From the NCBI GenBank assembly GCA_013151745.1, contig JAADHS010000012.1, positions 4,354 through 68,353 of the forward strand: 64,000 bases of DNA, written 5' to 3'. The position numbers and the translations under genes are program-made. The stretch comes from Gammaproteobacteria bacterium (GTDB taxonomy: Bacteria > Pseudomonadota > Gammaproteobacteria > JAADHS01). The notes beneath the pieces were generated by a model. That model saw nothing but the letters and a program-made list of their open reading frames with translations. It was not told where the DNA came from and did no database searches. Every line of letters begins with the position of its first letter. Positions within the stretch are counted from its first letter, which is position 1. Of the stretch, positions 670 through 35,891 are shown in pieces.

Positions 670-1869
670 CTAGATTTGCAATAACAGGCGAGCCGGGTCT
701 TCTAACATCTCTTTTACAGTAATGAGAAAGTGTACCGCCTCCTTACCATCGACAATGCGATGATCATAAGACAGGGCGAGATACATCATGGGTCTGGCGA
801 CAATTTCACCGTTCTCAACAATGGGCCGGATTTGTGTCTTGTGCATGCCAAGAATACCACTTTGTGGAGGATTAAGAATGGGGGTGGATAGTAAAGAACC
901 AAAAACCCCGCCATTACTGATTGTAAAAGTGCCCCCCGTTAAATCATCAATAGAGAGTTTACCTTCTCGAGCTTTTATCGCGTAATCCGTGATTTGCTGT
1001 TCCAGCTCGGCAAAGGACAGGGCATCGGCATTTCTGACGACGGGAACGACTAAGCCTCGAGGAGAACTTACCGCGATGCTGATATCAAAATAGCCATGAT
1101 AAACAATATCATTGGCGTCTATGGATGCATTGACTACGGGGAATTTTTTGAGGCCTTCGACGACCGCTTTAGTGAAAAAGGACATGAACCCCAGTTTTAT
1201 ACCGTATTCTTTTTCAAATTTATCCTTATAACGACCCCGCATATCCATAACGGGCTGCATATTGACTTCATTAAAAGTAGTCAGCATGGCCGCCGTATTT
1301 TGTGCCTCCTTCAATCTTTCAGCAATACGGGTACGCAGGCGTGTCATCGGTACTCGACGTTCTTCTCGAGAGGCACCCAGTTGTGTGGGTGTGCCGGGTT
1401 GTACCGGCGGTTGTGCTGTAGACGGCGTTTTATTGTGGTTTAATACATCCGCTTTGGTGATGCGTCCATCTTTGCCCGTGCCGACAATATGCTCGGGGTT
1501 GATCCCCTGCTCGTTAACTCGTTTACGCACAGCCGGACTTAATTTAGCATGGGTTGATGATGCTGCAGACGCAACAGTTGCAGTGTGTTCGACGGACACG
1601 GTGGGTCTGGTCGCTTGCAGGCTGGCCTTGGCTTCGCTGTCTATGACGGCAAGCACTTCTTCACTGCCTACTGAAGTGCCATTGGCTTTTTTTATTTCAG
1701 TTAAAACGCCATCTTCCGGGGCGACGATTTCCAGCACAACCTTGTCTGTTTCCAGCTCTACAAGGATCTCATCTCTGAGAACAAATTCACCACTTTGTTT
1801 ATGCCAGCTAATCAGCGTTCCCTCCGTAATAGACTCAGACAAAACGGGGACTTTGACTTCGATCAACAT
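670..1869 (-). CDS. sucB: Dihydrolipoyllysine-residue succinyltransferase (E2 of 2-oxoglutarate dehydrogenase)
   Basis: 399 aa. N-terminal lipoyl domain ([24 protein letters not shown]), Ala/Pro-rich linker, C-terminal catalytic domain (..[13 protein letters not shown]..). Adjacent to sucA. Confidence 0.93.
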
Positions 1870-1890
1870 TGTTGTTCTCCCTTTACAATA

Positions 1891-4728
1891 TTATTTTGAA
1901 TTTATCGACAGTGCCTCTTCAATCAAATGGCGTTGTTGCATGATATGCTTTTTCAAGTAACCCACTGCAGGTGCTGCCGCCGCCGTGCGTCCTGCATAGC
2001 GTAGTTGTTGACCGACCTTGAGTTTATCTCTTATATGGTCTTGAATGAAGCCCCATGCCCCCTGATTTTGTGGTTCTTCCTGGCACCAGACAATGTCCTG
2101 GGCATTACAATATTGGGTCATGATGTCTTTTAATTCAATATCTGGAAATGGATATAATTGTTCAATTCTGACGATTGCGGTATTCAAAACGCCTTGTTTT
2201 TTCTGTTCCTGGAGTAAGTCAAAATAGACTTTACCGCTACAAAAAATGACTTTTTCGATTTCTGAAGGCGCGGTAACGTAGGTATCATCAATGATCAGTT
2301 GAAATGGGTGTGAAACCAGGTCGTCCAGTGTCGAGGTTGAATCTCGATGTCTTAATAAACTCTTGGGCGTCATGACGATCAAGGGTTTTCGATAGGGTCG
2401 CAACATCTGTCGGCGAATAAGATGAAACATTTGGCTGGGTAAGCTGGGTACGAGAACTTGAATATTGTCTTCAGCACAGAGTTGCAGGTATCTTTCCAGT
2501 CTTGCTGATGAGTGCTCTGGGCCTTGGCCATCGAAACCATGCGGCAGATACATCACCAGACTGCTCAGACGATTCCATTTAGAGTGGCCAGAGGATATAA
2601 ACTGGTCAATAACCACTTGAGCACCATTGGCAAAGTCGCCAAATTGAGCTTCCCATATAGTGAGGCATTTAGGGTCTGTCGCACTAAAACCATATTCAAA
2701 GCCCAGTACGGCCTCTTCAGAGAGCAGTGAATCAATGACGGTAAAGCTCGGTTTGCTGTCATTAACATAGCGTAGCGGGACATGGGCTGCCCCCGTTTTT
2801 TGATCATGGAGAACCGCATGACGATGAAAAAAAGTGCCTCTGCCGCTGTCCTGACCCGATAAACGTACAGAATAACCTTCTCTAAGCAGAGTGGCATAGG
2901 CCAGCGTTTCAGCAAAGCCCCAGTCCATCCTGGCCTCTCCGCTGGCCATATTCAGTCGCTCTTCCATAATTCGAGCGACCCTGGGGTGTAGAACGAAGCC
3001 CTCAGGAAGTAAGTTCAGTTGTTTTGCCAAAGTCGATACGACTTGTTGTGATGTTTGTGTATTAACAGCGTAGCGCCAGTGGGTTTCCGCATAGGGTGTC
3101 CAGTCGGTCATTACGGCTCGTGCTGTTGCATTGATGTTGGGTGCGGCGGTTTCACCGTGGTCTAGCAGTGCCCGATATTGTTGTTGCATCTGAGTAATGT
3201 CATCTTGTGTAACAACACCTTCTTTAACCAGATGTTGAGCATAGATATCGGGTACGGTTGCATGCTGTTTAATGATTGAATACATCATGGGTTGCGTTGC
3301 GGAGGGTTCATCTGCTTCACTGTGGCCGTGCCTGCGATAACAGAATAGATCGATGACAACATCTCTGCCAAATTCATTGCGAAAGTCAAAAGCAAGCTGT
3401 GCTGCAAAAAGCACGGCTTCCGGGTTGTCGCCATTGACGTGTAGTACCGGAGCTTGAACCATCCGAGCAACTTCAGTGCAATACGGAGTAGAGCGGGCAT
3501 CCAGATGATTGCTTGTGGTAAATCCGATTTGATTATTAATGATAATATGCAAGGCGCCACCAATGGTAAAGCCGCGTGCTTGAGACATGTTGAAGGTTTC
3601 CATGACGACGCCCTGACCCGCAAAAGCAGCATCGCCATGGATTAATATAGGCATGACTTCGGTGCGTTTTTTATCCTCTCTTCGGTGTTGTCGGGCGCGT
3701 ACAGAACCGGCGACGACAGGGCAGATGATTTCAAGATGTGACGGGTTAAAGGAGAGGGCAAGATGGAGGTCTCCGCCGTCTGTTTTAATGTTTGAAGAGA
3801 AACCTTGATGGTATTTGACATCACCTGAGCCTTCATTGGTACTGGGGTCAAAATGTCCTTCGAACTCTTGGAACAGCGTAGCAGGAGATTTACCCAATAT
3901 ATTGATCAATACGTTTAAACGACCGCGGTGTGCCATGCCCATGACCACTTCTTTTGTCCCGTTTTTTCCTGCGGATTGAAGGAGGTGGTCGAGCAGAGGA
4001 ATCAGGCTTTCACCGCCTTCCAGAGAAAAACGCTTTTGCCCAACATATTTGGTATGCAGGTATTTTTCCAGGCCCGACGCGGCAATAACACGAGATAAAA
4101 TATTGCGTTGTTGCGCCGGGTCAGGTCTCAATTTGGCGCGTGACGACTCAAGGCGTTGCTGGATCCAACGCTTTTGAGTGGTGCTGGAAATATGCATATA
4201 TTCAGCGCCAAGGTGGCCGCAATAGGTTTCTCTTAAATGATGTATGATATCTCGCAAAGTGGCTTGTTCGACGCCAGCCAGTGAGCCTGTATTAAATACC
4301 GTATCCATATCATTTTCGCTCAAACCGTGAGAGGCCGGGATCAGGTCAGGCAAAGGTGGCGATTTTTTGAGTGAAAGAGGGTCGGTTTTTGCTTCCTGGT
4401 GGCCGCGAAAGCGATAAGCATTGATGAGTTGTAACACGGCGACTTGTTTACTCTCAATAGATTCGATGACTTGGTTATAGTCTTGATGCGTTAAAGAACG
4501 AGGTCGGTGACCTTGAAAAACAAATTCATTACGGATAAGGGCATGATCAACGTCAGCAATGGGTGGGTCATTGGGTTTTTTGAACGTGTCAAAATAACTA
4601 CGCCAGTTTTCATCTATGTCGTTGGGGTTTGTTAAATAGTTGGCATACAGCTCTTCAATAAATGCAGCATTACCCGCAAATAAATAGCTACTGTCCAAAA
4701 AGTCTTGCATTCCGTTTTTGTTCTTCAC
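1891..4728 (-). CDS. sucA: 2-oxoglutarate dehydrogenase E1 component
   Basis: 945 aa with the typical SucA N-terminus (DSSYLFAGNAAFIEELY), a TPP-binding region and a transketolase-like C-terminal half. Confidence 0.95.
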   Translation of the reverse strand: MKNKNGMQDFLDSSYLFAGNAAFIEELYANYLTNPNDIDENWRSYFDTFKKPNDPPIADVDHALIRNEFVFQGHRPRSLTHQDYNQVIESIESKQVAVLQLINAYRFRGHQEAKTDPLSLKKSPPLPDLIPASHGLSENDMDTVFNTGSLAGVEQATLRDIIHHLRETYCGHLGAEYMHISSTTQKRWIQQRLESSRAKLRPDPAQQRNILSRVIAASGLEKYLHTKYVGQKRFSLEGGESLIPLLDHLLQSAGKNGTKEVVMGMAHRGRLNVLINILGKSPATLFQEFEGHFDPSTNEGSGDVKYHQGFSSNIKTDGGDLHLALSFNPSHLEIICPVVAGSVRARQHRREDKKRTEVMPILIHGDAAFAGQGVVMETFNMSQARGFTIGGALHIIINNQIGFTTSNHLDARSTPYCTEVARMVQAPVLHVNGDNPEAVLFAAQLAFDFRNEFGRDVVIDLFCYRRHGHSEADEPSATQPMMYSIIKQHATVPDIYAQHLVKEGVVTQDDITQMQQQYRALLDHGETAAPNINATARAVMTDWTPYAETHWRYAVNTQTSQQVVSTLAKQLNLLPEGFVLHPRVARIMEERLNMASGEARMDWGFAETLAYATLLREGYSVRLSGQDSGRGTFFHRHAVLHDQKTGAAHVPLRYVNDSKPSFTVIDSLLSEEAVLGFEYGFSATDPKCLTIWEAQFGDFANGAQVVIDQFISSGHSKWNRLSSLVMYLPHGFDGQGPEHSSARLERYLQLCAEDNIQVLVPSLPSQMFHLIRRQMLRPYRKPLIVMTPKSLLRHRDSTSTLDDLVSHPFQLIIDDTYVTAPSEIEKVIFCSGKVYFDLLQEQKKQGVLNTAIVRIEQLYPFPDIELKDIMTQYCNAQDIVWCQEEPQNQGAWGFIQDHIRDKLKVGQQLRYAGRTAAAAPAVGYLKKHIMQQRHLIEEALSINSK

Positions 4729-4743
4729 TGTAACGACCCTGTT

Positions 4744-6519
4744 TTATAAAGAAGACCAAATTGTGTCAAAATCCCCTGATTCTTCCAGGTTATTTTTGTT
4801 TTGTTCTTTGTTGAGAGAGGTTGTTGTATATTGAAATTGTTTAAACCATTTGTTGGATTGTATGAGCCTTGAAAGCTGGATGAGTGTTTCACCGTTGTTT
4901 TGATGTAATAATACCGTATTTCCTGTATGAAAAAATGAAGACGTCATGATGGTTTCAGGCCTATTTATCGCTTTGATCGTGGGCAGTATTAAAGCATAGC
5001 TGAAGTCTTCTGTTTGTTTGCTTTCCTGTTTTAATTTAATTCGTACCGCTTCTGCTGTTGGTGTTAACACTTCTGCGCCCATAATAACAATAGCGTCTTC
5101 TTTTTTCATCCAGCGAATGATGCATAGCGTGTAATTTTGTGGCTGGTCTGGGGATTCAACAACACAGAGCAAGTCATCGACATTTAATGGCGCATGTTCT
5201 TTTTGCTCCCAGAGTAAGCAGTACCCGCCCGCGCTTTCATCTATTTTTTTGAGCAGATAGCGGTGCGCTGGAGTGCATGTTGTGTCTGGTAAATCCGGAC
5301 TCAAGTCGTCGTTTATTGTTGCTGTAGCTTGTACACGTTGGCCAAAATCCCACAGGGTGTTTTTTTGACCATGGAGAGGGTCAGGTGTTTTTTCTTTTGC
5401 GGAAAAAACAGCAGGGCGTTGCCAGTTGTCATTTTCATTTGAAAAATTGGAGATATAACGATGTATAGAGGATAATCCTATAGTGACTTCAACTGAACTT
5501 GATTTTTTGTGTCGGGGGAATTGGCGTTTTGACAATAGCTCCCAGGAGAGCAGCAAGCGTTTTAATGTCGTTTTTGACAGGGCTCGAGTTGCTTCCTCTT
5601 GCTCGCCAACGTGTAAATGACCAGCCTGGTTGGTAGAAAGCAATGATGATTCCCTTATTTTTTTTATCAATAATGAAGTGTCTAATATTAAACATGGTTC
5701 ATTTTCAAGATCAAGCTGACTATGAAAGCGAGGTGGGTCGTCTTTATAGGGGTTGACAGCGAACAGACCGGAGGCTTGCGTGTCTGCATGTGATTCACTG
5801 AGCTTGCAAAAAGGAGCCCAATATTTAAGTGAATGTTGAATGTTCAGAGTGTCTTCCTGCGAGAGTTGATAAGGGTTGGCCAGCGCAAGAAGGAGTGTCT
5901 GTAAATAGATATTGTCTATCGTTTTTGTTTTGTCTTTGCGAAGATGGCGTGTCGTGACTACGCCAGTATTTAAATTATGGGTCCGCGCGAAAGAATACAG
6001 TGTGTGTAACTCCAGCCATAACAGAGGCGGTGCGGAAGTATATACCAGATATTCATTAGTTAAAATTTGGTGCATATGAAGCAAGGTATGATAGATCGAC
6101 GGTAATAGTAGAGACTTGCTGGTAAATAAGCCGCCATGATTGTGAATGAGATCGATGATGATTTTATAGCCCGTCGTTAATTCTGTTAATATTTCTCTGG
6201 CAAGGTGTGCAACTTTAATATTTTTCATGGAAAGTGTTGCCGAGACGTGGGTATATTTTCCTTGTAAGGACGCGATGATCTCTTCTATGGCAGGGGTTAT
6301 TTTTTGCAGAAAATAAAATCGTTCTTGATTTGGTATAAGGGTGCCATTGGTTTCGCGCAAGGCATGGTAAATATGCCGGCTCAGTTCCCCTATGTGCGCC
6401 CGTGGCAGGTCGTTGTACCATTCATCAATATGCTTGGCCTGAGTGTTAAAATGAGTGGTTTTAGCCGGTTTTTTTTGTTCCGGTACATTGAGCATTAATG
6501 GCTTTCCAGTTGTGGCCAC
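4744..6519 (-). CDS. Large hypothetical protein with a C-terminal PilZ-like motif (possible c-di-GMP receptor)
   Basis: 591 aa ORF ending 15 bp upstream of the sucA start. It contains ..AHRYLLKKIDESAGGYCLLWE.. (DxSxGG, the second PilZ signature) followed by beta-strand-like segments. A canonical RxxxR partner is not clear. No other domain recognised by eye. Confidence 0.45.
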   Translation of the reverse strand: MATTGKPLMLNVPEQKKPAKTTHFNTQAKHIDEWYNDLPRAHIGELSRHIYHALRETNGTLIPNQERFYFLQKITPAIEEIIASLQGKYTHVSATLSMKNIKVAHLAREILTELTTGYKIIIDLIHNHGGLFTSKSLLLPSIYHTLLHMHQILTNEYLVYTSAPPLLWLELHTLYSFARTHNLNTGVVTTRHLRKDKTKTIDNIYLQTLLLALANPYQLSQEDTLNIQHSLKYWAPFCKLSESHADTQASGLFAVNPYKDDPPRFHSQLDLENEPCLILDTSLLIKKIRESSLLSTNQAGHLHVGEQEEATRALSKTTLKRLLLSWELLSKRQFPRHKKSSSVEVTIGLSSIHRYISNFSNENDNWQRPAVFSAKEKTPDPLHGQKNTLWDFGQRVQATATINDDLSPDLPDTTCTPAHRYLLKKIDESAGGYCLLWEQKEHAPLNVDDLLCVVESPDQPQNYTLCIIRWMKKEDAIVIMGAEVLTPTAEAVRIKLKQESKQTEDFSYALILPTIKAINRPETIMTSSFFHTGNTVLLHQNNGETLIQLSRLIQSNKWFKQFQYTTTSLNKEQNKNNLEESGDFDTIWSSL

Positions 6520-6671
6520 TATAAACCTCCGCTGTTTTGACTCTCTGGTTTCTGATAAAATGATGTCTTTGATAAAGGATATAATCGACCAATAAGCGAT
6601 TTTGTTTAAGAAAATCTAAAATATTAGCAAACATTCAAGCCCAGTGCCGATCGCACCGATATGTTTCTATG

Positions 6672-6895
6672 CCCATGGCGTTATGAATTTAGGTGTTAGC
6701 ACGTGCAAATAAGCCTTGGATTCGGTTTTTCCGACTGACGACTGCATGGATACAGGAGATAGCACCCAAAGAACTGGGTATAAATGCTCTACATCGCGGA
6801 TCAACTGCGTTTTCTAGGGTAAAAGTAACTTACCGAGAAAAAACCGAGAATGAGTGCCGGTGGACGTGAAAATGCCTCAATTCATAACGCCATGG
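6672..6895. repeat. Intergenic repeat element copy A (224 bp, 18-bp perfect terminal inverted repeats)
   Basis: CCCATGGCGTTATGAATT at 6672-6689 and its reverse complement AATTCATAACGCCATGGG at 6878-6895. Internal modules recur elsewhere: a TCGGTTTTTCCGA hairpin, CAGGAGATAGCACCCAAAGAACTGG, and GCTCTACATCGCGGATCAACTGCGTTTTCTAGG. Confidence 0.8.
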
Positions 6896-6945
6896 GTTGA
6901 TAGTCGTTTTATGAAATTATTGAACAACGTGGGAGTGATAATAGA

Positions 6946-8649
6946 TTGTTAAGTACAGCTTCCACTTTTCGTTTAGAGCAATCATTGTGTATTGGTTTTA
7001 TAGCCAGTCGCCATTCCTCAAGTAAAATAATCAGCGATATGTTGATTAAGTCGGGGCATCATATAGATATTTTTTTGGGTCTCCAGGAGGCTTTGCCTCA
7101 AGTGACCACGGGGAAGTATGACCTTATATTGATTATGGTCGAAAAAGGGGCAGAGGCTAAACAGTGTGAAGAATTAATTCGTTTTGTTCGTCAGCAAAAA
7201 ACTCCTGAAATATATAGCATACCTTTAGTCGTCATTACCGAATTTGATAGTGCGATGACCCTCGAAAATTTGTTTTTGGCGGGGGCAAGTGATGTCATTA
7301 TTTTACCCATTAGCGAAGCAGAATTACACAATAGGCTACATCAGGTTATTTTTTTAGTTCCTGAATCTATTTTTGAAGGTCGTCGAAGCGAGAAAGAACG
7401 GTTAGAAATTGAAAATATAAACGAGCCGGACAAGTTAACTGAAAAAAATACAAAGCCATCAAGGAAGAGGGGCTGGTATATTATTGTTTTCATAGGGCTA
7501 GTTCTTGGGTTGATTGCTATTATCAATATGGGTCATAACACGCAGGCACCAGAGCGAGAAGACCATTTTGTTCAAGAAACGGTGGTTAAAAAGGAAGTTA
7601 AAGAGGTTGTCAGTCAGCCAGAAATCGTCATTAAACCGGCTGTTGAAGAACCAAAAACAGTGCATAAAACGGCTATTTTAATCTCAACGGTACGCCCTGA
7701 ACTCGGTAGTCTGATTCAAAATAGAGACTTTTCTGGGCGGGTTGTGAGTGAAGAGCAATGGGCTGTTCGCTCAAAAACTTCCGGAAAAATAGCCCGTGTT
7801 TTTGTTGATGTTGGTGAGCGCGTCTCTAAAAAACAGGTGATTGCCGTTCTGGAAAGCAAGAAGGCGGTGACCGAGTTAAAAAATGCCCAGATTAGTTTGA
7901 GAAAAGCAAAGGCCTTTTTGCAGCTTGCGACGGATAAATATGAGACAACGCTTGAACGTTATCGCCAAGGACAAGGTAACAAGCCTCGTTTGCGTGAGGC
8001 TGAAGTGTCTCAACATAATGCAAAAACGGAGCAAAAAATGGCCGAAAAAGCCTACAGGGATGCCCGCATAGCATTGGAAAATACAAGAATTACTGCGAAG
8101 TTTGACGGCGTTATATCTTCGGTGTTTTTTGAAAAAAATAAGATGATAAATAAAAACGATATTTTGTTTAACCTGGAAAAATCGTCAAAAAAAGGGGTAG
8201 AACTCTTTTTAGAAGCAAAACAAAAGCCTGATATTGCTGTAAATAATAGTGTGACCGTATTTACTGACAGGGATGAAAGCGCGTCTCCATCCTGGGATGA
8301 AAAAGTCGTGGCGGTTAGGCCGGTAGTGGATGCATCAGGTGTCACCTCAGCATGGCGAGTTCAATTGACACTGACAAACGATCGTTTGCGTTACGGTCAG
8401 CAAGTGCATGTCAATTTACCCATACTTGAAAAAGAAGAGGTTGTTAAAGTTCATACAAGTAATGTGATAAATAAGAAAACCCAACCGTTCATACCCATAA
8501 ACAATAAGGGTGTGGTTAAATATCAACCTGTTAAACTAGGTTTGCAGATGGGGGATTATGTGGAAATAAAGCAGGGGTTAGTGCTGGATGATGAAATTAT
8601 TGTATCTCCAGAGCTGCTTGACGAAGGGGTGTCAGTGAGAACCCATTGA
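6946..8649 (+). CDS. Degenerate receiver (pseudo-REC) domain, one TM helix, then an HlyD/RND-adaptor-like periplasmic domain
   Basis: 567 aa. N-terminal CheY-like fold in which the phospho-acceptor position is Met (..YDLILIMVE..) and the conserved Lys is lost. A hydrophobic helix (WYIIVFIGLVLGLIAIINMG) follows. The C-terminal region has the biotin-lipoyl-like hairpin (GKIARVFVDVGERVSKKQVIAVLE), a coiled coil and the beta-barrel/MP domain typical of membrane fusion proteins. The start is uncertain: TTG at 6946 or ATG near 7038. Confidence 0.6.
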   Translation: MLSTASTFRLEQSLCIGFIASRHSSSKIISDMLIKSGHHIDIFLGLQEALPQVTTGKYDLILIMVEKGAEAKQCEELIRFVRQQKTPEIYSIPLVVITEFDSAMTLENLFLAGASDVIILPISEAELHNRLHQVIFLVPESIFEGRRSEKERLEIENINEPDKLTEKNTKPSRKRGWYIIVFIGLVLGLIAIINMGHNTQAPEREDHFVQETVVKKEVKEVVSQPEIVIKPAVEEPKTVHKTAILISTVRPELGSLIQNRDFSGRVVSEEQWAVRSKTSGKIARVFVDVGERVSKKQVIAVLESKKAVTELKNAQISLRKAKAFLQLATDKYETTLERYRQGQGNKPRLREAEVSQHNAKTEQKMAEKAYRDARIALENTRITAKFDGVISSVFFEKNKMINKNDILFNLEKSSKKGVELFLEAKQKPDIAVNNSVTVFTDRDESASPSWDEKVVAVRPVVDASGVTSAWRVQLTLTNDRLRYGQQVHVNLPILEKEEVVKVHTSNVINKKTQPFIPINNKGVVKYQPVKLGLQMGDYVEIKQGLVLDDEIIVSPELLDEGVSVRTH

Positions 8650-8749
8650 ACCTAAAAAACTCAGTTGATCCACCTAACTATGCGGGAAAAAGTTTCATCA
8701 CCAATAAGGTGACCATGATTTTCCTCGCTACGTTATTTGAATCAATATC

Positions 8750-8800
8750 TTGCATTCTACATTTGCGTCCAACTGCGTTTTCTAGGTTGAACCTAAAGTT
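8750..8800. repeat. Repeat-family fragment E (CGTCCAACTGCGTTTTCTAGG module)
   Basis: Matches the 3' module of copies A, C and F. Confidence 0.6.
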
Positions 8801-9026
8801 TTACACCGAATCAGCCGAAAACAAATTGAAATCGCATATGAAATTAATGCATGCTCTGACCCGGTGAACTTTTTTTAATGAGGCGTTATTAGCGTATATA
8901 CCTGTCACAGTGGGTGAGCGTATGAGACCGTTTATTCAATTGCATAGGGATGACTATTGGATTCGTTTGTCTTTGCTGTTGGGTTGGGTATGCTTGATTA
9001 AATAACAAGGGAGTTGTTTATAAGCT

Positions 9027-9896
9027 ATGATTCAAGCGCGTGCTTTACGTCTGGTTGACGGAGTTTCAGATCTGATTGCTTTGCCCGAAGTCAGTCTCAA
9101 GGTTAATGAGTTAGTTGATGATCCTACCTCGTCGGCCGCCGATATGGCTCAAGTCATTAGCCTGGATGCGGCTATAACGGCAAAATTGCTGAAAGTTGCT
9201 AACAGTTCTTTTTATCGCTTTCCATCAAAAATTGATACGGTATCCAGAGCGGTGACGATCATTGGAACGAGAGAGCTTAGGTTCTTGGTTTTAGCCAGTT
9301 CCGCTGTGCGTTCATTTGATAAAATAAATAATAACAATATTGATATTGCTTCGTTTTGGCGTCACAGTGTTTATACTGCGGTTGTTGCACGACTGCTTGC
9401 GACTAAATGTAATATATTACATAAAGAACGACTTTTTGTCTGTGGCTTGCTTCACGATGTGGGTCATTTGGTCATGTCGCACCGCATCCCTGATCTTGTG
9501 CAAGTGATGCAATATCGAGCCGAGACGGCCAAAATCCCAAGGTATGAGGCTGAACAGAGTGTCTATGAAGTCGATCATGCCCTCGTTGGGGCCGAGTTAC
9601 TCAAATCATGGGGCTTGCCGGAAAGTTTGCAAGATGCGATTAAATATCACCACGAACCTGAGAAAGCAGCGGATTATATGCTAGAAACTTCAATCGTGCA
9701 TATTGCCAACAGTCTTGGCAAGCTGGGAGAGCTGGGTGGTACCGACTTAAGCCAGTGTCCGATGATCTCACCTGTTGCATGGGAGGTGACGAAGTTATCA
9801 CCAGACATTGTAGAATCTGTCTTGCAGGAGGCGCGAGCACAATTTTTGGAAGCGCTATTGTTATTCTTGCCCGGCGTTGCTGTAGCAGCGAGTTGA
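9027..9896 (+). CDS. HDOD domain signalling protein
   Basis: 289 aa with HD-related output domain motifs (..FRHSVYTAVVARLLA.., ..GLLHDVGHLVM..). Confidence 0.75.
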   Translation: MIQARALRLVDGVSDLIALPEVSLKVNELVDDPTSSAADMAQVISLDAAITAKLLKVANSSFYRFPSKIDTVSRAVTIIGTRELRFLVLASSAVRSFDKINNNNIDIASFWRHSVYTAVVARLLATKCNILHKERLFVCGLLHDVGHLVMSHRIPDLVQVMQYRAETAKIPRYEAEQSVYEVDHALVGAELLKSWGLPESLQDAIKYHHEPEKAADYMLETSIVHIANSLGKLGELGGTDLSQCPMISPVAWEVTKLSPDIVESVLQEARAQFLEALLLFLPGVAVAAS

Positions 9897-9908: not shown

Positions 9909-10337
9909 ATGGTGGCAATACAGTTAGATCGGGTCAGGCTCACTAATTTAAGGTGGTTGATTCGCCAGGAAGGATCGGTAACGCAACTGGCGGCAAAGCT
10001 CACCATTTCACCCATTTACATTTTTAATGTATTAGATGGTCAGTTTACTATTGGTGATGCGCTTGCCCGAAAAATAGAAGGTATTTATGGCTATTCACGT
10101 GGTTGGATGGACGGCAGTAATGATATCAAAATCAACACCGAAACAGTGGTTCCTGTTCTAACGCTTGACCAGGCAAGACAGCCTGCACAAAATGAAGGTG
10201 GCAATGAATTGCTCTCAGATTTCATGAACACTTTCGAGGATGCCGCTGTTGAAAATGGGCTGAATTTAACACCAGAGCAAAAAGAAAAATATTTGTTGGA
10301 TATCGAGAAAAACGTTTCTGACAAAAAGCAAACATAA
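9909..10337 (+). CDS. Small XRE/Cro-like HTH protein
   Basis: 142 aa with a GGAG RBS 5 bp upstream. A helix-turn-helix-like segment (SVTQLAAKLTISPIYIFNVLDGQ..IGDALARKIEGIYG) is followed by an acidic tail. It lies 12 bp after the HDOD gene. Confidence 0.5.
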   Translation: MVAIQLDRVRLTNLRWLIRQEGSVTQLAAKLTISPIYIFNVLDGQFTIGDALARKIEGIYGYSRGWMDGSNDIKINTETVVPVLTLDQARQPAQNEGGNELLSDFMNTFEDAAVENGLNLTPEQKEKYLLDIEKNVSDKKQT

Positions 10338-10577: not shown

Positions 10578-10602
10578 CATCGTCCAACTGCGTTTTTTAG
10601 GA
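10578..10602. repeat. Repeat-family fragment F between convergent genes
   Basis: CATCGTCCAACTGCGTTTTTTAGG shares the module of copies A, C and E. Confidence 0.6.
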
Positions 10603-11685
10603 TTAAAGACTCAGCATGTTTTTAACAATTTGTTTGGCACCATCAAATGCGTCAGGTTCACAAAATACAGGGTATTTTTGCGTTGTTAATGCAGAAAATT
10701 CTGCTTGAAAATGCCCCTGAAAAAGTTGTTCGCGAGTGATGTTTTGACATAAGCCGTTAATTTTTAACCAAGAAACTAAGAATGACTCTTCTGGCCAATC
10801 GCCACGTTTCACATACAATACCGGTTTTTTATTACAGGCCGCTTCAGTAAAAATGCCATACCCTGGTTTGGTGATCACACAATCCACAGAGCATAGCAAG
10901 TCAAGATAGCTATAGGAGAATTGATCTATAGCGATTAAATCGTCACGTTTACATTCTGTTGTGTCTGGCACCAGCCATACTTGATTAGGGTAACTTGGCC
11001 ATTGATCGAAAGGAATATCGGTTTTGACCCCGCCAAGCGCAACTAGAGTTAACTGAATATTCGTTGCGTTTATCTTTTTTAGTAAATGGTCTTTAACGGA
11101 CTGACCTCGTTGAGCAATGGGGTTAACCTGTATGGCGTTTTCAAGCCAGTTCATTGGCATACAAGGCGTTATTTTGTAAAAACAGTCGGCAGCATTATAA
11201 CTATTTTGTATTTGTTGATAAATGTCGTCTGCAGTGGCGTTGTTTTTACAATAAGAATGAAAAATATCAGCCCAGTTTAGAGAGCACATTGCAATACAGG
11301 GGTAATCGCTATTTTGCGTGGCAAGCAAGGGCAAATAAGCAATATTCGAGATCAGCAAGTCGGGGGATAAGGCGTCAAAAAAAAGGTTACATGCGTGTTT
11401 TTGTTTCTCCCAATGTTGGTGTAAATTTTGATATTGGGCCATGCTTTTTTTAGCTAGAACATCAATGCTTGATGCCATCACCATGCCAAAGTCCCATGAT
11501 CGCTCTATATGCCGACAACCGGGTAGTCGTCGTTTGATGATGGTGGGTGAAATTCCGGAAACAACGGTAATTTCAGCATGGGGAATCAAGCACAGCAGTT
11601 CTTTGATCACCGGTATCGTTTGGGCTAAGTGACCCAGGCCGTGCGCAGAAACAGTAAATACGAAATGGGGTTTGTTCGAGTTCAT
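10603..11685 (-). CDS. Glycosyltransferase-like protein (GT-B/UDP-glycosyltransferase-like, MJ1255-type)
   Basis: 360 aa with an N-terminal SAHGLGH motif and two Rossmann-like halves. No family search was possible. Confidence 0.45.
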   Translation of the reverse strand: MNSNKPHFVFTVSAHGLGHLAQTIPVIKELLCLIPHAEITVVSGISPTIIKRRLPGCRHIERSWDFGMVMASSIDVLAKKSMAQYQNLHQHWEKQKHACNLFFDALSPDLLISNIAYLPLLATQNSDYPCIAMCSLNWADIFHSYCKNNATADDIYQQIQNSYNAADCFYKITPCMPMNWLENAIQVNPIAQRGQSVKDHLLKKINATNIQLTLVALGGVKTDIPFDQWPSYPNQVWLVPDTTECKRDDLIAIDQFSYSYLDLLCSVDCVITKPGYGIFTEAACNKKPVLYVKRGDWPEESFLVSWLKINGLCQNITREQLFQGHFQAEFSALTTQKYPVFCEPDAFDGAKQIVKNMLSL

Positions 11686-11824: not shown

Positions 11825-12295
11825 GTGGAGAATGCTATGCCAATAAATGAAAATAGGGTTCCAGAGCGCCGCATGCGTTCTGTTACAATGGTTCAAAAGC
11901 TGGTTGAAGTCCGCAGCGACATGTTAAGTCTCTATAGTGAATTAGCTGAAAGAAAACCCTATCACGATGTTGGAGACGATTTCCCCGAGGTGTTGGCTGA
12001 TTTTTGTGCCTCATTAATCGATTACACTGCTAATGCCCACTTTCAGCTATATCGGTATTTTGCAGAAAAGAAAGAAAGGCGGCAGCGTATTATTGATGTG
12101 GCGGATAAAATTTATCCGCGTATCGTTGATATTACGCAGAGCATTTTGGATTTTAATGATAAATATGATAGTGATCAACAACGGCAAAATCTATGCGACC
12201 TTGAAAAAGACTTGTCTGTTCTGGGTGAAGCTTTAGCCGAACGTATTGAGCTGGAAGATAACCTCATTGATGTCTTAAGCAGCTCTGGAAAATAA
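11825..12295 (+). CDS. rsd: Rsd/AlgQ-family regulator of sigma D (anti-sigma-70)
   Basis: 156 aa. It aligns by eye to E. coli Rsd: DDFCQSLVDYLSAGHFSIYERI against ADFCASLIDYTANAHFQLYRYF, and LSDIGEALEARFVLEDKLI against LSVLGEALAERIELEDNLI. Confidence 0.75.
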   Translation: MENAMPINENRVPERRMRSVTMVQKLVEVRSDMLSLYSELAERKPYHDVGDDFPEVLADFCASLIDYTANAHFQLYRYFAEKKERRQRIIDVADKIYPRIVDITQSILDFNDKYDSDQQRQNLCDLEKDLSVLGEALAERIELEDNLIDVLSSSGK

Positions 12296-12301
12296 GCTTG
12301 T

Positions 12302-14407
12302 GTGAAAGAACTGACGCATGAACAACTTTACCATCAATGTGACCTCAGTCAGCTTAATGTCAGCTCAACGGACGAGCTGAATACCTTTGATGATATTCTG
12401 GGGCAGGCCAGGGCGCTGCAAGCTATTCAATTTGGTGTTGGTATGCCTCATGACGGCTATAATATCTTTGCTCTGGGTTCTCAGGGTGTGGGTAAAAAGA
12501 CGTTAATTTCTCGTACTCTTCGTCGTGAAAAAAAATCAGTGGCACATCGCACACTGCGAGACTGGTGCTATGTACATAATTTTTTAGTCCCTCATCAACC
12601 CTCAAAACTTTCTTTTCCTTGTGGTCAAGCCCATGTTTTTAAGGCTACCTTCGGTGCTGTAATGAAAGCACTTGATGCTGCGATTCCGGCTTTAGTTAAT
12701 GATGCTGACTATCACGTGCAGGTGAATTCTTTTTTTCAAAAGTTGAGAAAGAAGCATGAAGATTCGTCAGAGGTCAGTCACTATCTTAGTGCAGTAGTCA
12801 ACGATGTATTAAAAAACACCGAAGACTTTGTCAGAGATTACGGCTCGGGTAAAAATGAGTATGAACCATGTCACTTAAAAATTCGCTACCGAGTTAATGT
12901 TATCGTTGAACATGAGGCGCAGTCAGAATTGCCGGTTATTTATGAAGATTATCCGTCTTATCATAATTTGATTGGTTTTTTTGATCAGACCTCGGTGATG
13001 GGTGCGGTTTCTACCGATTTTACTTTGATCCGACCTGGTGCGCTACATCAAGCTAACGGTGGCTATCTGGTTCTTGATGCACTAAATTTATTACAATCTC
13101 CGCACGCCTGGGCGGCGTTAAAGCAGGCTTTGCGAAGTAAGAAAATTCGTATTGAGTCGTTAAATAAAGTGCATAATTTAAGCTGTAATGTTTCTATTGA
13201 CCCAGAAGTGATCCCATTAGACATAAAGATAATATTAATGGGGGAGCGCTCTGTTTATTACTCAATTTATGAAGAAGATAGGGATGTTGCTGAACTATTC
13301 AAAGTGATAGCTGATTGTAACGATACTTTGGCATGGACTGTGGAGAATGAAAAAAATTATATTCAATTAATAGTCAGGCTTATAAGGGACAATAAACTGC
13401 TTCCTTTTTCTATGGCGGCGGTGGGTAGAATAGTCGAAGCAAGTGCGCGGTGTGCCGGTTCCAGTCGTAAACTCTCTGTTCATATGGGTGTGATTCAAGA
13501 TTTATTATTCGAATCGAATTATTGGGCTCAACAAAATAAAAATAAAATCGTCGATAAAAAACATGTGATCGAAGCTTTGGATCAGCAGACCTTTCGCGGT
13601 AACCGGGCAAAAATAGAATATCAAGATGAAATGCTTCATCATGATATTTTAATCGACGTCCGTGGTGAGCGTGTGGGCACCCTGAATGCATTGACTATTG
13701 TAGAGAATGGCGGTATTGGTTTTGGTGTACCTTGTCGCATTACCGGGGTGACTCGTTTAGGCGAGGGAGAAATTATCAATATTGAACGTGAAATCGATAT
13801 GAGTGGTGCTATCCATTCCAAAGGTGTTTCTATATTGAGCGCATTCATCGGTTCCCGGTTTGGACAACAACAATGGTTATCTTTTTCTGCCAGCCTGGTT
13901 TTTGAGCAGCTGTACAATGAAATAGATGGCGACAGTGCCTCTTTGGCTGAGCTTTGTGTCTTATTCTCCTCTTTAGCTCTGACGCCATTCAAGCAAAGTA
14001 TTGCGATAACCGGGTCAGTTAATCAACATGGTGAGGTACAAGTTATTGGCGGTGTAAATCAAAAAATTGAAGGTTTTTTTGATTTATGTCAAGAACGAGG
14101 CTTGACGGGTGAACAAGGCGTTATTATTCCCTGTGCTAATGTGACTGATCTTATGCTGCATGATCACCTGATTGAATCTGTGAAAGCTCGTCAATTTCAT
14201 ATTTATCCGGTGAGTTGTGTTGATGATGCTCTGGAAATACTGAGTGGCCTAGTTAGTGTCGCAATGACCGAAAATGGTGAATACGTACCCGACACCCTTC
14301 ATTATTTGATTCATCAGCGTTTGAAAAAATATACCGAATATCGACATGAACATGGTATAGCAGGAAAACAAAGTGACGCAGATGACACAGATTCGCTTTA
14401 TCCCTGA
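12302..14407 (+). CDS. Lon-like ATP-dependent protease (YcbZ/AsrA-type AAA+ with Lon C-terminal proteolytic domain)
   Basis: 701 aa with a GTG start. Walker A GSQGVGKKT, and a C-terminal Lon protease S16-like region (..ITGSVNQHGEVQVIGGVNQKIEGFFD..). Confidence 0.75.
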   Translation: MKELTHEQLYHQCDLSQLNVSSTDELNTFDDILGQARALQAIQFGVGMPHDGYNIFALGSQGVGKKTLISRTLRREKKSVAHRTLRDWCYVHNFLVPHQPSKLSFPCGQAHVFKATFGAVMKALDAAIPALVNDADYHVQVNSFFQKLRKKHEDSSEVSHYLSAVVNDVLKNTEDFVRDYGSGKNEYEPCHLKIRYRVNVIVEHEAQSELPVIYEDYPSYHNLIGFFDQTSVMGAVSTDFTLIRPGALHQANGGYLVLDALNLLQSPHAWAALKQALRSKKIRIESLNKVHNLSCNVSIDPEVIPLDIKIILMGERSVYYSIYEEDRDVAELFKVIADCNDTLAWTVENEKNYIQLIVRLIRDNKLLPFSMAAVGRIVEASARCAGSSRKLSVHMGVIQDLLFESNYWAQQNKNKIVDKKHVIEALDQQTFRGNRAKIEYQDEMLHHDILIDVRGERVGTLNALTIVENGGIGFGVPCRITGVTRLGEGEIINIEREIDMSGAIHSKGVSILSAFIGSRFGQQQWLSFSASLVFEQLYNEIDGDSASLAELCVLFSSLALTPFKQSIAITGSVNQHGEVQVIGGVNQKIEGFFDLCQERGLTGEQGVIIPCANVTDLMLHDHLIESVKARQFHIYPVSCVDDALEILSGLVSVAMTENGEYVPDTLHYLIHQRLKKYTEYRHEHGIAGKQSDADDTDSLYP

Positions 14408-14419
14408 CAGGTATACAGG

Positions 14420-20035: not shown

Positions 20036-20109
20036 GGCTGGGTGGCAGAGTGGCTATGCAGCGGCCTGCAAAGCCGTGGACGCCGGTTCGATTCCGGCCC
20101 CAGCCTCCA
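20036..20109 (+). tRNA. tRNA-Cys (anticodon GCA)
   Basis: 74 nt: acceptor GGCTGGG/CCCAGCC, anticodon loop CCTGCAAAG, GGTTCGATTCC T-loop, CCA. Confidence 0.9.
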
Positions 20110-20217
20110 ATCACTTGTAGCGTTACCTTGTGTAATTTATCGATTATTGTTTAGGGTTCTTGCTTACGGATAAAAAACAAGCAAGAGGGTCTATTTTTAA
20201 CAGCCATCACCTGCTAT

Positions 20218-20304
20218 GCCCGGGTGGCGAAATTGGTAGACGCAAGGGACTTAAAATCCCTCGGAGGAAACTCCGTGCCGGTTCGATTCCGGCCCCGGGC
20301 ACCA
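20218..20304 (+). tRNA. tRNA-Leu (anticodon TAA), with long variable arm
   Basis: 87 nt: acceptor GCCCGGG/CCCGGGC, anticodon loop ACTTAAAAT, extended variable arm, GGTTCGATTCC, CCA. Confidence 0.9.
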
Positions 20305-20378
20305 ATATTTTTATAGCGCCATTTGTCTTGTCATTCTCTTTCACAGCCTGCTTTGGTAGAGTTGGCCTGCGTCGTTCT

Positions 20379-30100: not shown

Positions 30101-30146
30101 CGATCAGAAGCAGGAAGCTGAGACAATTATGCATAATATGAATTAA
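27123..30146 (+). CDS. fimV: FimV/HubP-family pilus assembly and polar-landmark protein
   Basis: 1007 aa with a GTG start. Signal/TM at the N-terminus, a conserved FimV N-terminal region, a LysM motif (..NLWSIAEKM..KLQAGYVLRVPD), a long highly acidic low-complexity middle, a TM segment (LLIGGAVLLLIGALIWGW) and a TPR-like FimV C-terminal motif (..DLARAYIEMEDRVGARDILEEVLEEG..). It lies downstream of asd as in Pseudomonas. Confidence 0.8.
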   Translation: MRVLKSLIVGIGLFVFGVTQVYGLGLGDIELNSNLNQPLKAKIELFVVDPDELKQLEVKLADKTAYEISGVEHVPLLNDLIFKVVAIDGNQVVIEVTTESPVREPFLDFIVEANWAAGRLLREYTLLLDPPIYAQEHTAPIVAAQTIQLSSAKSETASAETSQPESATSSSTVTQSSGQFTGNEYGPVKNNENLWSIAEKMRTDGSTTEQVMMGLFKMNPDAFSDKNINKLQAGYVLRVPDATTIQALSHSEAAKQARQHYSDWLTQRRLAAVASNQLPGNGAGLAARAETSDAQVSSAGSDAQLRLVSPEEGQDGLSGAGSGGLSVTDLSRVQAAEADIAAQALQTRIQELESKLSQKERLLTLQNDALYELQQQLGGQGDLVEATATEFTDADAANDPTTIRSPGEVVANAEPAESTTETITTPEKAATSVADVEPESSVVVTAQVDPPSTVAENKWMDLLENTNVLLIGGAVLLLIGALIWGWVRRRQLVAEEEFDAEAYGLLPGELKMPEGDGEVGIMQAETERPESVLSDSRIASEEVESSDIFAEDSTAGMDSFETDDVEVDPLAEADVYLAYRRYGQAENRIRTALEQDPESERLHMKLMEIYYSSENQLAFEAEAEAIFARQGGDETAWSQIVEMGRELCPDHPLFGETKATDTTELDNLSLDEDIDLDSFDLDHSGADAQSQDDMFAMTPDDVSTEMLAEADDHSAPLDSLLDSEIEDLNGVEDLAVDAASLDEMSITDETIAETDNEIASLLEGLDSFGEETPDSPESKNIKDSRATDELPAVADQMQDDGFENIPSFDKEGAQAESQVNSEAELSTDNVVDFDSSELAHSGRVVHGGGRDDLPSDLDSRAADADLDRKNKNEGLSSDIAAHAEDENVDFVAGLDLSGLGGDITSDDFSSESKYLQDDNEDSSIAADIIPMPGAEVVDSVPENVGHADVRSGDLFGGMDAIGTKLDLARAYIEMEDRVGARDILEEVLEEGSDDQKQEAETIMHNMN

Positions 30147-30169: not shown

Positions 30170-30306
30170 TCTATATCCGTGGCGTTATAAATGTAGGTGC
30201 TAGCGCGTGTAGACGCGCTTTAGATCGGTTTTTCCGATTAAGGAAAAGCTGAAGATGAGGTACAGATGTGTGTGAAAAGATCTAAGTTTATAACGCCACG
30301 GGTATA
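30170..30306. repeat. Intergenic repeat element copy B (about 137 bp, terminal inverted repeats)
   Basis: ATATCCGTGGCGTTATAAA at 30173-30191 and TTTATAACGCCACGGGTATAT at 30287-30306. It shares the GGCGTTAT.AAT.TAGGTG.TAGC.CGTG and TCGGTTTTTCCGA modules with copy A. Confidence 0.75.
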
Positions 30307-31472: not shown

Positions 31473-31571
31473 TTTTTTCCGCATAGTTAGGCGGATCAAG
31501 AGCTTGTATCCAAGAAATCGGGTATCAATGCTCTACATCGTGGATCAACAGCGTTTTTTAGGTTAAATAGG
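31473..31571. repeat. Intergenic repeat element copy C
   Basis: TTTTTTCCGCATAGTTAGGCGGATCAAGAGCTTGTAT is shared with copy D. GGGTATCAATGCTCTACATCGTGGATCAACAGCGTTTTTTAGGTTAAATAGG is shared with copy A. Confidence 0.7.
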
Positions 31572-35862: not shown

Positions 35863-35891
35863 AAGTGTGGCTGAGATAAAAAAATAAGAGT

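Follow-up and report, generated by a model that had tools for sequence, protein, structure and literature searches.

Two divergently transcribed genes lie beside the sucAB-lpd operon in the 64-kb window (the whole stretch of DNA that was analysed), one with a PilZ-like motif and the other joining a receiver-like domain to a periplasmic adaptor. Do they form one signalling unit wrapped around a metabolic operon, as the first-pass annotation proposed, or are they separate genes that have come to be neighbors? We consider it likely that they have separate identities, a FimW receptor and a reduced MacA-type receiver-adaptor, with a divergent promoter region common to both in a single gammaproteobacterial clade. 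We base this reading on protein identities, conserved residues, folds, synteny and selection.

The FimW homologue

The minus-strand gene at 4744..6519 (GTG start) encodes a 591-aa protein that, judged by its sequence, falls within FimW, a known family of c-di-GMP receptors. FimW, which promotes type IV pilus assembly in P. aeruginosa following contact with a surface, is PA4958, described as a c-di-GMP effector for these pili (PMC10335732, PMC10212136, PMC12564702). Precomputed Pfam assignments for P0001, which is identical to the window protein, are FimW_N (PF27104) and FimW_C (PF27125), and the two domains are common to all 120 homologues listed. The Pseudomonas protein P0094 matches with E 2.8e-44 at 100% coverage and ~26% identity; its locus has the synteny motAB-HDOD-rhodanese-psd-FimW-serB of PA4953-4960, which defines it as the orthologue. 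In the AlphaFold2 model (pLDDT 84.9, pTM 0.85), residues ~28-237 form a helical domain at the N-terminus; a middle region follows, and then a beta-rich, PilZ-like domain at the C-terminus (~320-570). No solved structure matches the protein by sequence. Both this gene and its divergent neighbor are called identically in four related contigs. We also considered the protein as a novel PilZ-like fusion at the 5' end of sucAB, which is how it was first described, and reject this given FimW_N, FimW_C and the full-length homology to the PA4958 orthologue.

The DxSxGG signature that had been noticed in the C-terminal third is genuine and conserved, and it is accompanied by RxxxR. The stretch KKIDESAGGYCLLW spans residues 424-437, and homologue alignment identifies DESAGG within it (residues 427-432; 5224..5241, minus strand) as the D/NxSxGG half of the PilZ signature. 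S429, G431 and G432 are invariant in 52 FimW homologues, and N or D at position 427 is nearly invariant in the close ones. The same alignment places the first half of the PilZ-type c-di-GMP signature, RxxxR (R332-Q-F-P-R336), at 5512..5526 (minus strand), with R332 and R336 invariant in 52 homologues. This upstream motif had gone unmentioned in the first-pass annotation.

Alignment and pLDDT define a variable insertion of ~60 residues between the two motifs (358-418; 5266..5448, minus strand), which is partly disordered (pLDDT <50 at residues 371-414) and ranges from 43 to 92 residues across homologues. With the insertion excised, family members match the Pfam PilZ model, the homologue P0059 best of all and above threshold (23.7 bits; GA 22.5); the window protein stays below that model, intact or with the insertion removed. 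Its best Foldseek matches are c-di-GMP-bound BcsA and MotI, neither of them significant (E 0.0095 or worse). From the alignment, the C-terminal domain is a predicted PilZ-type barrel that is split by the variable insertion and keeps the c-di-GMP-binding residues.

By homology to P. aeruginosa FimW, the protein most likely binds c-di-GMP and promotes polar type IV pilus assembly. The window also encodes FimV and an MshEN-type (MshEN-T2SSE) pilus/secretion ATPase. No FimX-like gene occurs within the 64 kb, and the pilus role is thus an extrapolation from a protein that is 26% identical.

The receiver-adaptor and its missing pump

The plus-strand gene at 6946..8649 (TTG start) encodes a protein of 567 aa, resolved by TIGR01730, profile searches, AlphaFold2 and Foldseek into a pseudo-receiver, a TM helix and a MacA-type periplasmic adaptor. 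Its N-terminus is a receiver fold that is not phosphorylatable on Asp. This Asp-less domain, delimited by Pfam, homologues and the model, covers residues 12-136 (6979..7353, plus strand). It scores 20.1 bits against Response_reg, below the GA of 30.2. It matches the receiver repeats of a giant protein in L007 (36% identity, E 1.8e-20); in P0150, a related giant, the equivalent repeats reach 255.6 bits against Response_reg. The AlphaFold2 model of the window domain has the (beta-alpha)5 topology at pLDDT 83-95. This receiver homology and the model back the CheY-like N-terminus of the first-pass annotation, which was also right that the acceptor Asp has become Met and that the conserved Lys is lost: CheY D12/D13/D57/T87/K109 correspond to A20/S21/M64/T98/L120. 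Compared with L001, dN/dS is 0.11 in the receiver, the most constrained part of the protein, 0.20 in the adaptor and 0.75 in the linker; the first two values point to purifying selection on both folded domains and indicate that the 567-aa protein is maintained and still works.

A single TM helix at about residues 177-196 (7471..7536, plus strand), recognized from hydropathy (maximum 2.49 at residue 178) and sequence, follows the positively charged stretch KPSRKRG; from the positive-inside rule we infer an N-in, C-out orientation. Then comes the periplasmic adaptor (7678..8646, plus strand), with lipoyl halves, an alpha-hairpin (H305-340 and H346-378), a beta-barrel and a membrane-proximal domain. 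It scores 143.2 bits against TIGR01730 (cut-off 94.9), the hairpin, barrel and membrane-proximal parts are visible in the model of the whole protein (pLDDT 82.3), and Foldseek aligns it with AcrA, MexA and MacA over ~340 columns (E 1e-22 to 1e-25), all in agreement with the earlier reading of one TM helix followed by a complete adaptor module. A profile of the adaptor family matches TriAB (E 2.8e-76) and MacA (E 2.8e-45), and also CheY/RpfC/PleD receivers (E 1e-13 to 1e-20).

Adaptors with a signalling domain had been thought unusual, a view that does not survive the family search, since dozens of protein clusters share the architecture. Exhaustive phmmer searching gave ~60 long receiver(s)-adaptor fusions among the best 150 cluster representatives, and all nine fusions tested pass both the Response_reg and the HlyD Pfam models. 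Some have one canonical receiver at the N-terminus and others two to six tandem Asp-less receivers; the catalytic-residue classes are DDDTK, EDSTK (in arrays) and, in the window, ASMTL. We found no papers in the literature describing receiver-MacA-MacB systems. The 567-aa protein is a reduced member of this widespread, undescribed family of MacA-type adaptors with receivers. The role of the receivers in this family is most likely to gate a trans-envelope ABC export machine, or to localise it, from the cytoplasmic side. The window lineage retains one receiver, with all of its phospho-chemistry lost except the Thr, and this pseudo-receiver would act as a protein-binding module and not as a phospho-switch.

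The observation that no pump or outer-membrane-factor gene adjoins the adaptor extends to the entire window, in which there are no RND, MFS, MacB-type or outer-membrane-factor genes; its sole ABC ATPase (33163-33909) is part of a phosphonate-type importer. At about 20 of 23 related loci, a split MacB (an ATPase plus a MacB_PCD/FtsX permease) lies directly downstream of the receiver-adaptor gene, which in almost all relatives is the first gene of an operon with this pump. The two halves in L007 match the MacB model NF007826 with E 1.8e-80 and 3.2e-70, and L091 carries an outer-membrane factor as well. The first-pass annotation had allowed that a pump partner of known function in relatives would count against its reading; the presence of a split MacB at these loci does so in part. 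The split MacB of the relatives marks the architecture as that of a pump adaptor and the orphan state in the window as secondary loss. L005 has a 44%-identical orthologue, P0124, followed directly by the HDOD gene with no cis pump; the cis pump is lost both in the window lineage and in this relative. The adaptor might now serve a MacB-type pump encoded elsewhere, or might act as a pump-independent envelope scaffold.

Neighbourhood of the pair and alternative readings

The divergent intergenic region (6520..6945) measures 426 bp and the HDOD start lies 377 bp after the adaptor stop; these distances had been given as 425 and 400 bp, and the 15 bp reported between the FimW stop and sucA was exact. 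The region holds a MITE-like dispersed repeat of ~225 bp (6672-6896), whose inverted terminal arms are 36 nt long (repeat search: families D1-D4, pair I5), and has no match to an Rfam family. Its first 150 bp, beside FimW, are ~98% identical to L001, with the repeat part more substituted. The adaptor-HDOD spacer (8650..9026) is the site of the split MacB genes in relatives. Repeat copies and alignment with L001 and L005 show a repeat insertion in it (~8650-8790) and then a conserved leader (~8791-9026), and tblastn found no ABC remnants there, nor any of the pump genes in the window as a whole. The HDOD-domain protein that follows (289 aa; 9027..9896, plus strand; Pfam HDOD E 5e-63) adjoins the receiver-adaptor gene in six lineages (the window clade with L001-L004, L005, L007, L087, L092 and L106). 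HDOD, which had been counted among the c-di-GMP parts, is not established as one; the domain is associated with signalling in general, and the proposed local cluster of c-di-GMP parts around a metabolic operon comes down to FimW plus synteny.

On the other side of FimW, open reading frames and the Pfam content of the syntenic contigs identify sucA (1891-4728) and sucB (670-1869), together at 670..4728 on the minus strand, with lpd next and running off the window end; L001-L004 have E1, E2 and E3 in the same order. In the gap from the FimW stop to the GTG start of sucA (4729..4743, minus strand), AGGG provides a ribosome-binding site and no hairpin resembles a terminator. At 15 bp the two genes are close enough for co-transcription, as had been suggested; the FimW gene is probably read through into sucAB-lpd. 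Elsewhere the gap is 80 bp (L007 and L090), ~42 bp (L111) or 611 bp (L016). A FimX-like (REC-GGDEF-EAL) gene lies within 10 kb of FimW in 68 of 80 loci, and the FimW gene of the window clade has left this usual fimX/epmB neighborhood for its place before sucAB-lpd. sucA is near FimW at three of the 80 genome loci, plus two loci from metagenome assemblies, and is absent near the other 77; only one small clade has FimW next to sucA. In our view FimW came to lie before sucAB by an accident of synteny, which has regulatory consequences and is not a biochemical coupling. The arrangement of FimW, receiver-adaptor and sucA is kept while sucA diverges to 61-67% identity, and such persistence is compatible with a functional link that our main reading plays down.

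Such a link could mean that co-transcription ties c-di-GMP/surface signalling to expression of 2-oxoglutarate dehydrogenase, or that the enzyme complex is a target of FimW. Only synteny, in at least four lineages, suggests a functional link among FimW, the adaptor and sucAB. FimW and sucA are on the same strand, 15-80 bp apart in four of five lineages, the window gap is free of a terminator, and the arrangement has outlasted the divergence of sucA. We nevertheless regard a functional adjacency as unlikely, because the 611-bp gap in L016 means that sucA can have its own promoter, a promoter-like site lies within the 3' end of the window FimW gene (5109-5081), and most genome loci have no sucA nearby. 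No function of FimW or PilZ is known to touch the TCA cycle.

About as improbable, in our view, is an integrated c-di-GMP module. In it FimW would dock, dependent on c-di-GMP, on the adaptor's Asp-less receiver(s), HDOD would be the third member, and FimW would in this way control a trans-envelope export or pilus-related machine; in this clade the pseudo-receiver adaptor would replace FimX, itself an Asp-less receiver protein, beside FimW. FimW and the receiver-adaptor form a divergent pair in at least four lineages (the window clade, L007/L090, L016 and L111), between which FimW identity is only 32-34%; the other FimW loci commonly have the FimX-like gene nearby, the receiver of one FimX-like protein (L089) has Ala at the acceptor position, HDOD is linked to the adaptor genes, and the pseudo-receiver is under the strongest constraint. 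But FimW is missing from the surroundings of ~15 receiver-adaptor-MacB loci, as is the adaptor from those of ~75 FimW loci, the window receiver resembles FimX receivers only by their common fold, and conserved divergent pairs are often mere inherited clade synteny. Decay is a third reading, with the adaptor gene a remnant that lost its function after MacB deletion and the degenerate receiver part of the process. The absence of pump genes from the window would fit, as would a receiver lacking four of five catalytic residues, more than any relative, and mobile repeats at the site that holds the pump genes in relatives. We find this very improbable, since the frame is intact in the window as well as in the contigs of P0122 and P0123, which were assembled separately, receiver and adaptor evolve under much lower dN/dS than the linker, and the pump-less layout is common to the 44%-identical orthologue and has thus been kept long without a cis pump. 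We keep to two genes of separate identity with a common promoter region.

Comparison with known systems

The window protein shares with P. aeruginosa FimW both FimW domains, length class, full-length homology and RxxxR plus D/NxSxGG, and FimV is encoded in this genome too. It differs in its low identity to the Pseudomonas orthologue and in its setting: its gene does not adjoin a fimX-like gene, has sucAB downstream and is transcribed divergently from a receiver-adaptor gene, an arrangement of one clade only. Like canonical PilZ domains (PF07238; YcgR, MotI, the BcsA C-terminus), it has RxxxR...D/NxSxxG in a beta-rich C-terminal domain, and BcsA and MotI are its top structural neighbors; unlike them, the FimW family has its motifs parted by 43-92 residues, and the window protein scores nothing on the Pfam model even minus the insertion.

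The receiver of the 567-aa protein resembles other pseudo-receivers (e.g. RitR and the FimX N-terminus) in that another residue takes the place of the acceptor Asp and the Thr of the T/Y pair is still present. In a survey of Asp-less receivers the pocket Lys is usually kept (PMC4395418), whereas the window receiver is also without the Lys (L120) and both acidic residues, and in place of DNA binding or an enzyme it has a periplasmic adaptor as its output.

MacA has a short cytoplasmic tail, and YknX of YknXYZ and DevB of DevBCA are adaptors that work with a split ATPase and permease. With MacA of MacAB-TolC (and YknX and DevB) the 567-aa protein shares the N-terminal TM anchor and the four-part periplasmic adaptor; MacA is among the best profile matches of its family, and the partner in relatives is a split MacB, with the genes arranged adaptor-ATPase-permease. 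In place of a short tail, the window protein has a folded receiver of ~150 residues, and its gene is without a pump or outer-membrane factor nearby. Alg44 of alginate secretion, with a cytoplasmic PilZ domain, a TM and an adaptor-like periplasmic domain (PMC12564702), provides a precedent for a cytoplasmic second-messenger or signalling domain joined via one TM to a membrane-fusion-type periplasmic domain. The likeness is one of architecture, with PilZ in Alg44 where the window protein has a receiver, and the partner of Alg44 is the Alg8 polymerase and not an ABC pump.

Receiver–adaptor fusions and their pumps

The divergent pair consists of a FimW-family gene (591 aa; 4744..6519, minus strand) and a receiver–adaptor gene (567 aa; 6946..8649, plus strand), separated by a spacer of 426 bp; both open reading frames lie where the first-pass annotation had placed them, and the same gene calls are found on four related contigs. 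The arrangement is genuine and had been described correctly. The 567-aa protein had been read as a pseudo-receiver joined through a single transmembrane helix to a complete membrane-fusion adaptor, and this reading is confirmed in each of its parts. The N-terminus scores 20.1 bits against Pfam Response_reg (PF00072), below the gathering score of 30.2, and matches receiver structures weakly; its receiver fold was recognized through related repeats, a family profile and a structural model. The domain shares 36% identity (E 1.8e-20) with the receiver repeats of a giant relative at locus L007, and Response_reg matches the equivalent repeats of P0150, a related giant, with 255.6 bits. The profile of the receiver–adaptor family matches CheY, RpfC and PleD with E values of 1e-13 to 1e-20, and AlphaFold2 gives a CheY-like (beta-alpha)5 topology, with five strand-helix units at residues 15-136 (pLDDT 83-95). 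The CheY residues D12, D13, D57, T87 and K109 correspond to A20, S21, M64, T98 and L120, so that only T98 is kept; because the acceptor Asp, the acidic pair and the Lys are all lost, this is an aspartate-less pseudo-receiver. A hydrophobic helix follows at 177-196, after KPSRKRG. The adaptor module passes TIGR01730 (RND_mfp), matched over residues 250-555, at 143.2 bits against a cut-off of 94.9. The AlphaFold2 model (pLDDT 82.3) contains the lipoyl domain, a two-helix hairpin (305-340, 346-378), the barrel and the membrane-proximal domain, and Foldseek aligns it with AcrA, MexA and MacA (about 340 columns; E 1e-22 to 1e-25).

A word-indexed homologue search with the receiver–adaptor alignment was dominated by ordinary adaptors and recovered no receiver fusions; these came instead from a metagenome scan and an exhaustive phmmer search of 1.84 billion cluster representatives, of which the best 150 were considered. 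About 60 of these 150 are 600-1572 aa long, with the adaptor C-terminal and extra matched stretches upstream, and all nine of the long representatives scanned pass both the Response_reg and the HlyD-type Pfam models, two of them adding a C-terminal rhodanese domain. The architecture is a family and not a one-off. Its members fall into classes according to the residues at the five CheY positions. Some 35 clusters have one canonical receiver (D,D,D,T,K). A second class has two to six tandem receivers with Ser as acceptor (E,D,S,T,K) and includes the giants that adjoin FimW genes at L007 (1554 aa) and L016 (1388 aa). The window clade forms the third (A,S/N,M,T,L), and P0124, a 44%-identical orthologue, is intermediate (A,D,T,T,K). 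We found no description of receiver–adaptor fusions in the searchable literature, including a Chem Rev review of tripartite pumps, which says of the cytoplasmic domains of ABC/MFS-type adaptors only that they are large and that little is known of them (PMC8277102).

It is relatives, not the window, that contain the most striking objects: giant multi-pseudo-receiver adaptors with a split MacB. The giants at L007 (4731-9395), L016 (5531-9697) and L090 (731-5350), all on the minus strand and 1388-1554 aa in length, run from one degenerate receiver through four or five near-identical tandem Ser-acceptor receivers and a transmembrane helix into a MacA-type adaptor, with the split MacB next. Ser occupies the phospho-site in every tandem repeat of these three proteins. 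Receiver-receiver-adaptor proteins with an extra C-terminal rhodanese (P0166 and P0180; L093, 1760-4747) also occur; at L093, the one locus of this kind examined, no pump gene is adjacent.

At L007 and L016 the giant gene is followed directly by genes for an ABC ATPase and a permease (226 aa and 434 aa; 224 aa and 419 aa, respectively), and the L007 pair matches the two halves of MacB (NF007826) with E values of 1.8e-80 and 3.2e-70. The same order of adaptor, ATPase and MacB_PCD/FtsX permease recurs at L086, L087, L090, L091, L092, L095-L104, L106-L108 and L113. That a pump partners the adaptor in related genomes, with a known function, had been named as a point that would count against the first-pass account of an unusual orphan; pump partners do exist, since a split MacB lies directly downstream of the receiver–adaptor gene at about 20 of the 23 loci that were informative and lie outside the window clade (L093, with the rhodanese fusion, L109 and L110 are without one), and the window gene itself is pump-less. 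By tblastn, 8650-9026 contains no pump-gene remnants and no part of the 64 kb encodes a MacB-type permease, and domain scans of the window open reading frames examined gave no RND, MFS or outer-membrane-factor (TolC/OEP) gene, which bears out the earlier observation that no pump or outer-membrane factor is adjacent. The ABC ATPase at 33163 was considered as a pump candidate and rejected, being part of a phosphonate-type importer. Outer-membrane factors are often encoded elsewhere in known tripartite systems; among relatives with annotated neighbours, OEP genes stand beside the operon only at L091. Because the pump is present in relatives and missing after the adaptor in both the window and L005, the contig that carries P0124, the orphan state of the adaptor is real and secondary, and loss of the cis pump predates the split of the window and P0124 lineages.

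We compared the window with the 88%-identical orthologue on the related contig L001. dN/dS is 0.11 for the receiver, 0.20 for the adaptor module, 0.75 for the cytoplasmic linker and 0.57 for the transmembrane helix; the corresponding values for FimW, HDOD and sucA are 0.12, 0.08 and 0.04. Purifying selection acts on both folded domains, and no part of the protein is more constrained than the dead receiver; this argues against decay and for a binding role of the pseudo-receiver. We reject a pseudogene on these ratios and on the conservation of the gene. This half of the finding exemplifies an architecture that is common yet undescribed, in a degenerate form without a pump.

The adaptor stop is followed after 377 bp by an HDOD gene (9027..9896, plus strand; Pfam HDOD E 5e-63). 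HDOD adjoins the receiver–adaptor gene in the window clade, at L005 (where it is directly next, as in the window), L007, L087, L092 and L106, and is absent beside it at L096-L100 and L108, loci with long flanks; the association recurs in the sub-branch closest to the window. To our knowledge HDOD is not an established c-di-GMP component. Upstream of it, a non-coding stretch at 8791-9026 keeps long identical runs even in L005, despite an identity of only 44% in the neighbouring adaptor protein; perhaps it is a conserved leader or promoter, and no Rfam family matches it. A search of both intergenic regions for a riboswitch, of the c-di-GMP class or any other, gave no Rfam match at E up to 1 across 4400-9400. 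A 142-aa open reading frame (9909-10337) begins 12 bp after HDOD, with a very weak HTH_3 match (E 0.14) and no other family match; it is 94% conserved in relatives, where a DUF2835 gene comes next.

The FimW homologue and its neighbourhood

A database protein (P0001) identical over its whole length to the 591-aa protein carries the precomputed Pfam domains PF27104 and PF27125, as do all 120 homologues listed for it; these are newer Pfam families, whose names FimW_N and FimW_C we took from the gene tables of related contigs. A homologue cluster from Pseudomonas granadensis/fluorescens (P0094) matches with E 2.8e-44 and 100% coverage, in the gene order motA/motB - HDOD - rhodanese - psd - FimW - serB - ... 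- parC. We take this order to be the PA4953-PA4964 neighbourhood of P. aeruginosa PAO1. [quoted passage not shown] By sequence, then, the 591-aa protein belongs to the already named FimW family, and this half of the finding is a known family in an unusual place.

Scanning one genome per species with a 13-sequence FimW alignment gave 80 loci. Within 10 kb of FimW there is a FimX-like REC-GGDEF-EAL gene at 68 of the 80, epmB at 73 and efp at 66. Across Gammaproteobacteria (L008-L085), epmB/efp lie on one flank and the FimX-like gene, often then DUF1015 and parC, on the other. Neither a FimX-like gene nor epmB is present in the window; the FimX/epmB neighbourhood is a typical feature of FimW, not a defining one. 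HDOD and rhodanese neighbours, the Pseudomonas type, were rejected as general FimW context, occurring at 0 and 2 of the 80 loci, respectively. The window also encodes a FimV homologue (27123-30146), after leuC-leuD-leuB-asd, and a 791-aa MshEN-T2SSE ATPase (39524-41899, minus strand). The MshEN domain is a c-di-GMP-binding module in other proteins.

The combination of sucA, receiver–adaptor and HDOD near FimW occurs among the 80 loci only at L006 (the window clade), L007 and L016, and two further FimW–sucA cases (L090, L111) lie outside that scan. In the window the FimW stop is 15 bp from the GTG start of sucA; this gap contains an AGGG ribosome-binding site and no terminator-like hairpin, and there is a promoter-like site within the FimW 3' end. 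The gap is 80 bp at L007 and L090, about 42 bp at L111 and 611 bp at L016. Co-transcription of FimW with sucA is plausible in the window and is not a fixed feature.

The spacer between the divergent genes holds a copy of a dispersed, MITE-like intergenic repeat of about 225 bp with 36-nt inverted terminal arms (repeat A), found at 6672-6896, 8632-8800, 10581-10606, 30172-30306, 31362-31572, 32505-32540 and 54447-54532. The repeat copies differ between the window and contig L001, which is 88-95% identical to it. Immediately past the adaptor stop the window carries about 140 bp of inserted sequence with no counterpart in L001, and L001 carries a separate insertion, about 195 bp long, ahead of the HDOD start. 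Just upstream of an AIR-synthase-related gene, a 25-bp sequence is perfectly duplicated in tandem (GTTTTTGTGCGCAATGCCAGACATT x2, 35738-35787, within 35674-35863), with a 38-nt inverted repeat on its flanks. A tRNA T-arm-like sequence, GCCGGTTCGATTCCGGCC, occurs twice, at 20082-20111 and 20277-20306 (195 bp apart), presumably in two adjacent tRNA genes. At 11825-16630 an Rsd/AlgQ anti-sigma-70 homologue, a LonB/LonC-like AAA protease (701 aa) and a RelA/SpoT-family gene stand in a row on one strand, an order kept in L001-L004.

Cytoplasmic receivers and a proposed control of export

In the adaptor family, we propose, the most likely task of the cytoplasmic receivers is to govern how a MacAB-type export machine is assembled, how active it is or where it sits; canonical receivers would do so by being phosphorylated, Asp-less ones by binding proteins. 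The window adaptor would most likely still bridge the envelope, with a pump encoded elsewhere or alone. A bolder reading makes the Asp-less receivers docking sites for FimW, and perhaps for the linked HDOD protein, so that c-di-GMP would directly switch a trans-envelope ABC export machine or an envelope scaffold that has outlived its pump; in the window clade the adaptor would replace FimX as the partner of FimW, and transcription would link this module to 2-oxoglutarate dehydrogenase. What makes docking attractive is that the usual neighbour of FimW, FimX, has an N-terminal receiver as well, with Ala at the acceptor position in the one FimX-like protein checked. Docking of FimW or HDOD on the pseudo-receivers is a proposal drawn from synteny only and seems to us improbable, and we hold the full reading, with its switch and metabolic tie, to be unlikely as well.

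Control of the export machine through its adaptor, the reading we prefer, would be a post-translational, (pseudo-)two-component control of an efflux or secretion machine and, if true, would add a level of regulation to the transcriptional control known to date. The receiver–adaptor–MacB operons matter more than FimW: they form a sizeable family, some with up to six tandem Asp-less receivers. The window adaptor is a natural 'minimal' version, with one dead receiver and no cis pump and still selected, and offers a test of the adaptor alone.

The predicted c-di-GMP site of FimW

FimW has so far been known from a single organism; the window locus and the 80 related loci make it widespread in sulfur-oxidising and other Gammaproteobacteria, with an invariant c-di-GMP signature and fimX as the usual partner gene, and exceptions like the window clade can hint at alternative partners. 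The motif KKIDESAGGYCLLW lies at residues 424-437 of the 591-aa protein. R332 and R336 (KRQFPRH) and S429, G431 and G432 (DESAGG) are invariant in a 52-homologue alignment that reaches down to 21% identity, and D427 is also present in the window homologue. The AlphaFold2 model (pLDDT 84.9, pTM 0.85) has a disordered insertion (residues 371-414) within the site. The window homologue has no match to Pfam PilZ, intact or with the insertion excised; with it excised, three of seven family members match, at 23.7, 19.2 and 15.9 bits (gathering score 22.5, exceeded only by the first). In a Foldseek search of the PDB with the model, the top ranks went to c-di-GMP-bound BcsA (E 9.5e-3) and MotI (E 0.08), neither of them significant, and PDB sequence searches with the homologue and the family profile gave chance matches only. 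The first-pass description of this protein as PilZ-like was therefore right in substance, with the Arg, Ser and Gly residues of RxxxR and DxSxGG invariant, but the family was already named. By homology, the protein is predicted most likely to bind c-di-GMP through a split PilZ site and to promote pilus assembly. Compared with the canonical PilZ domain (PF07238), it has the same RxxxR ... D/NxSxxG signature, whereas a variable insertion of 43-92 residues places the two halves about 90 residues from each other.
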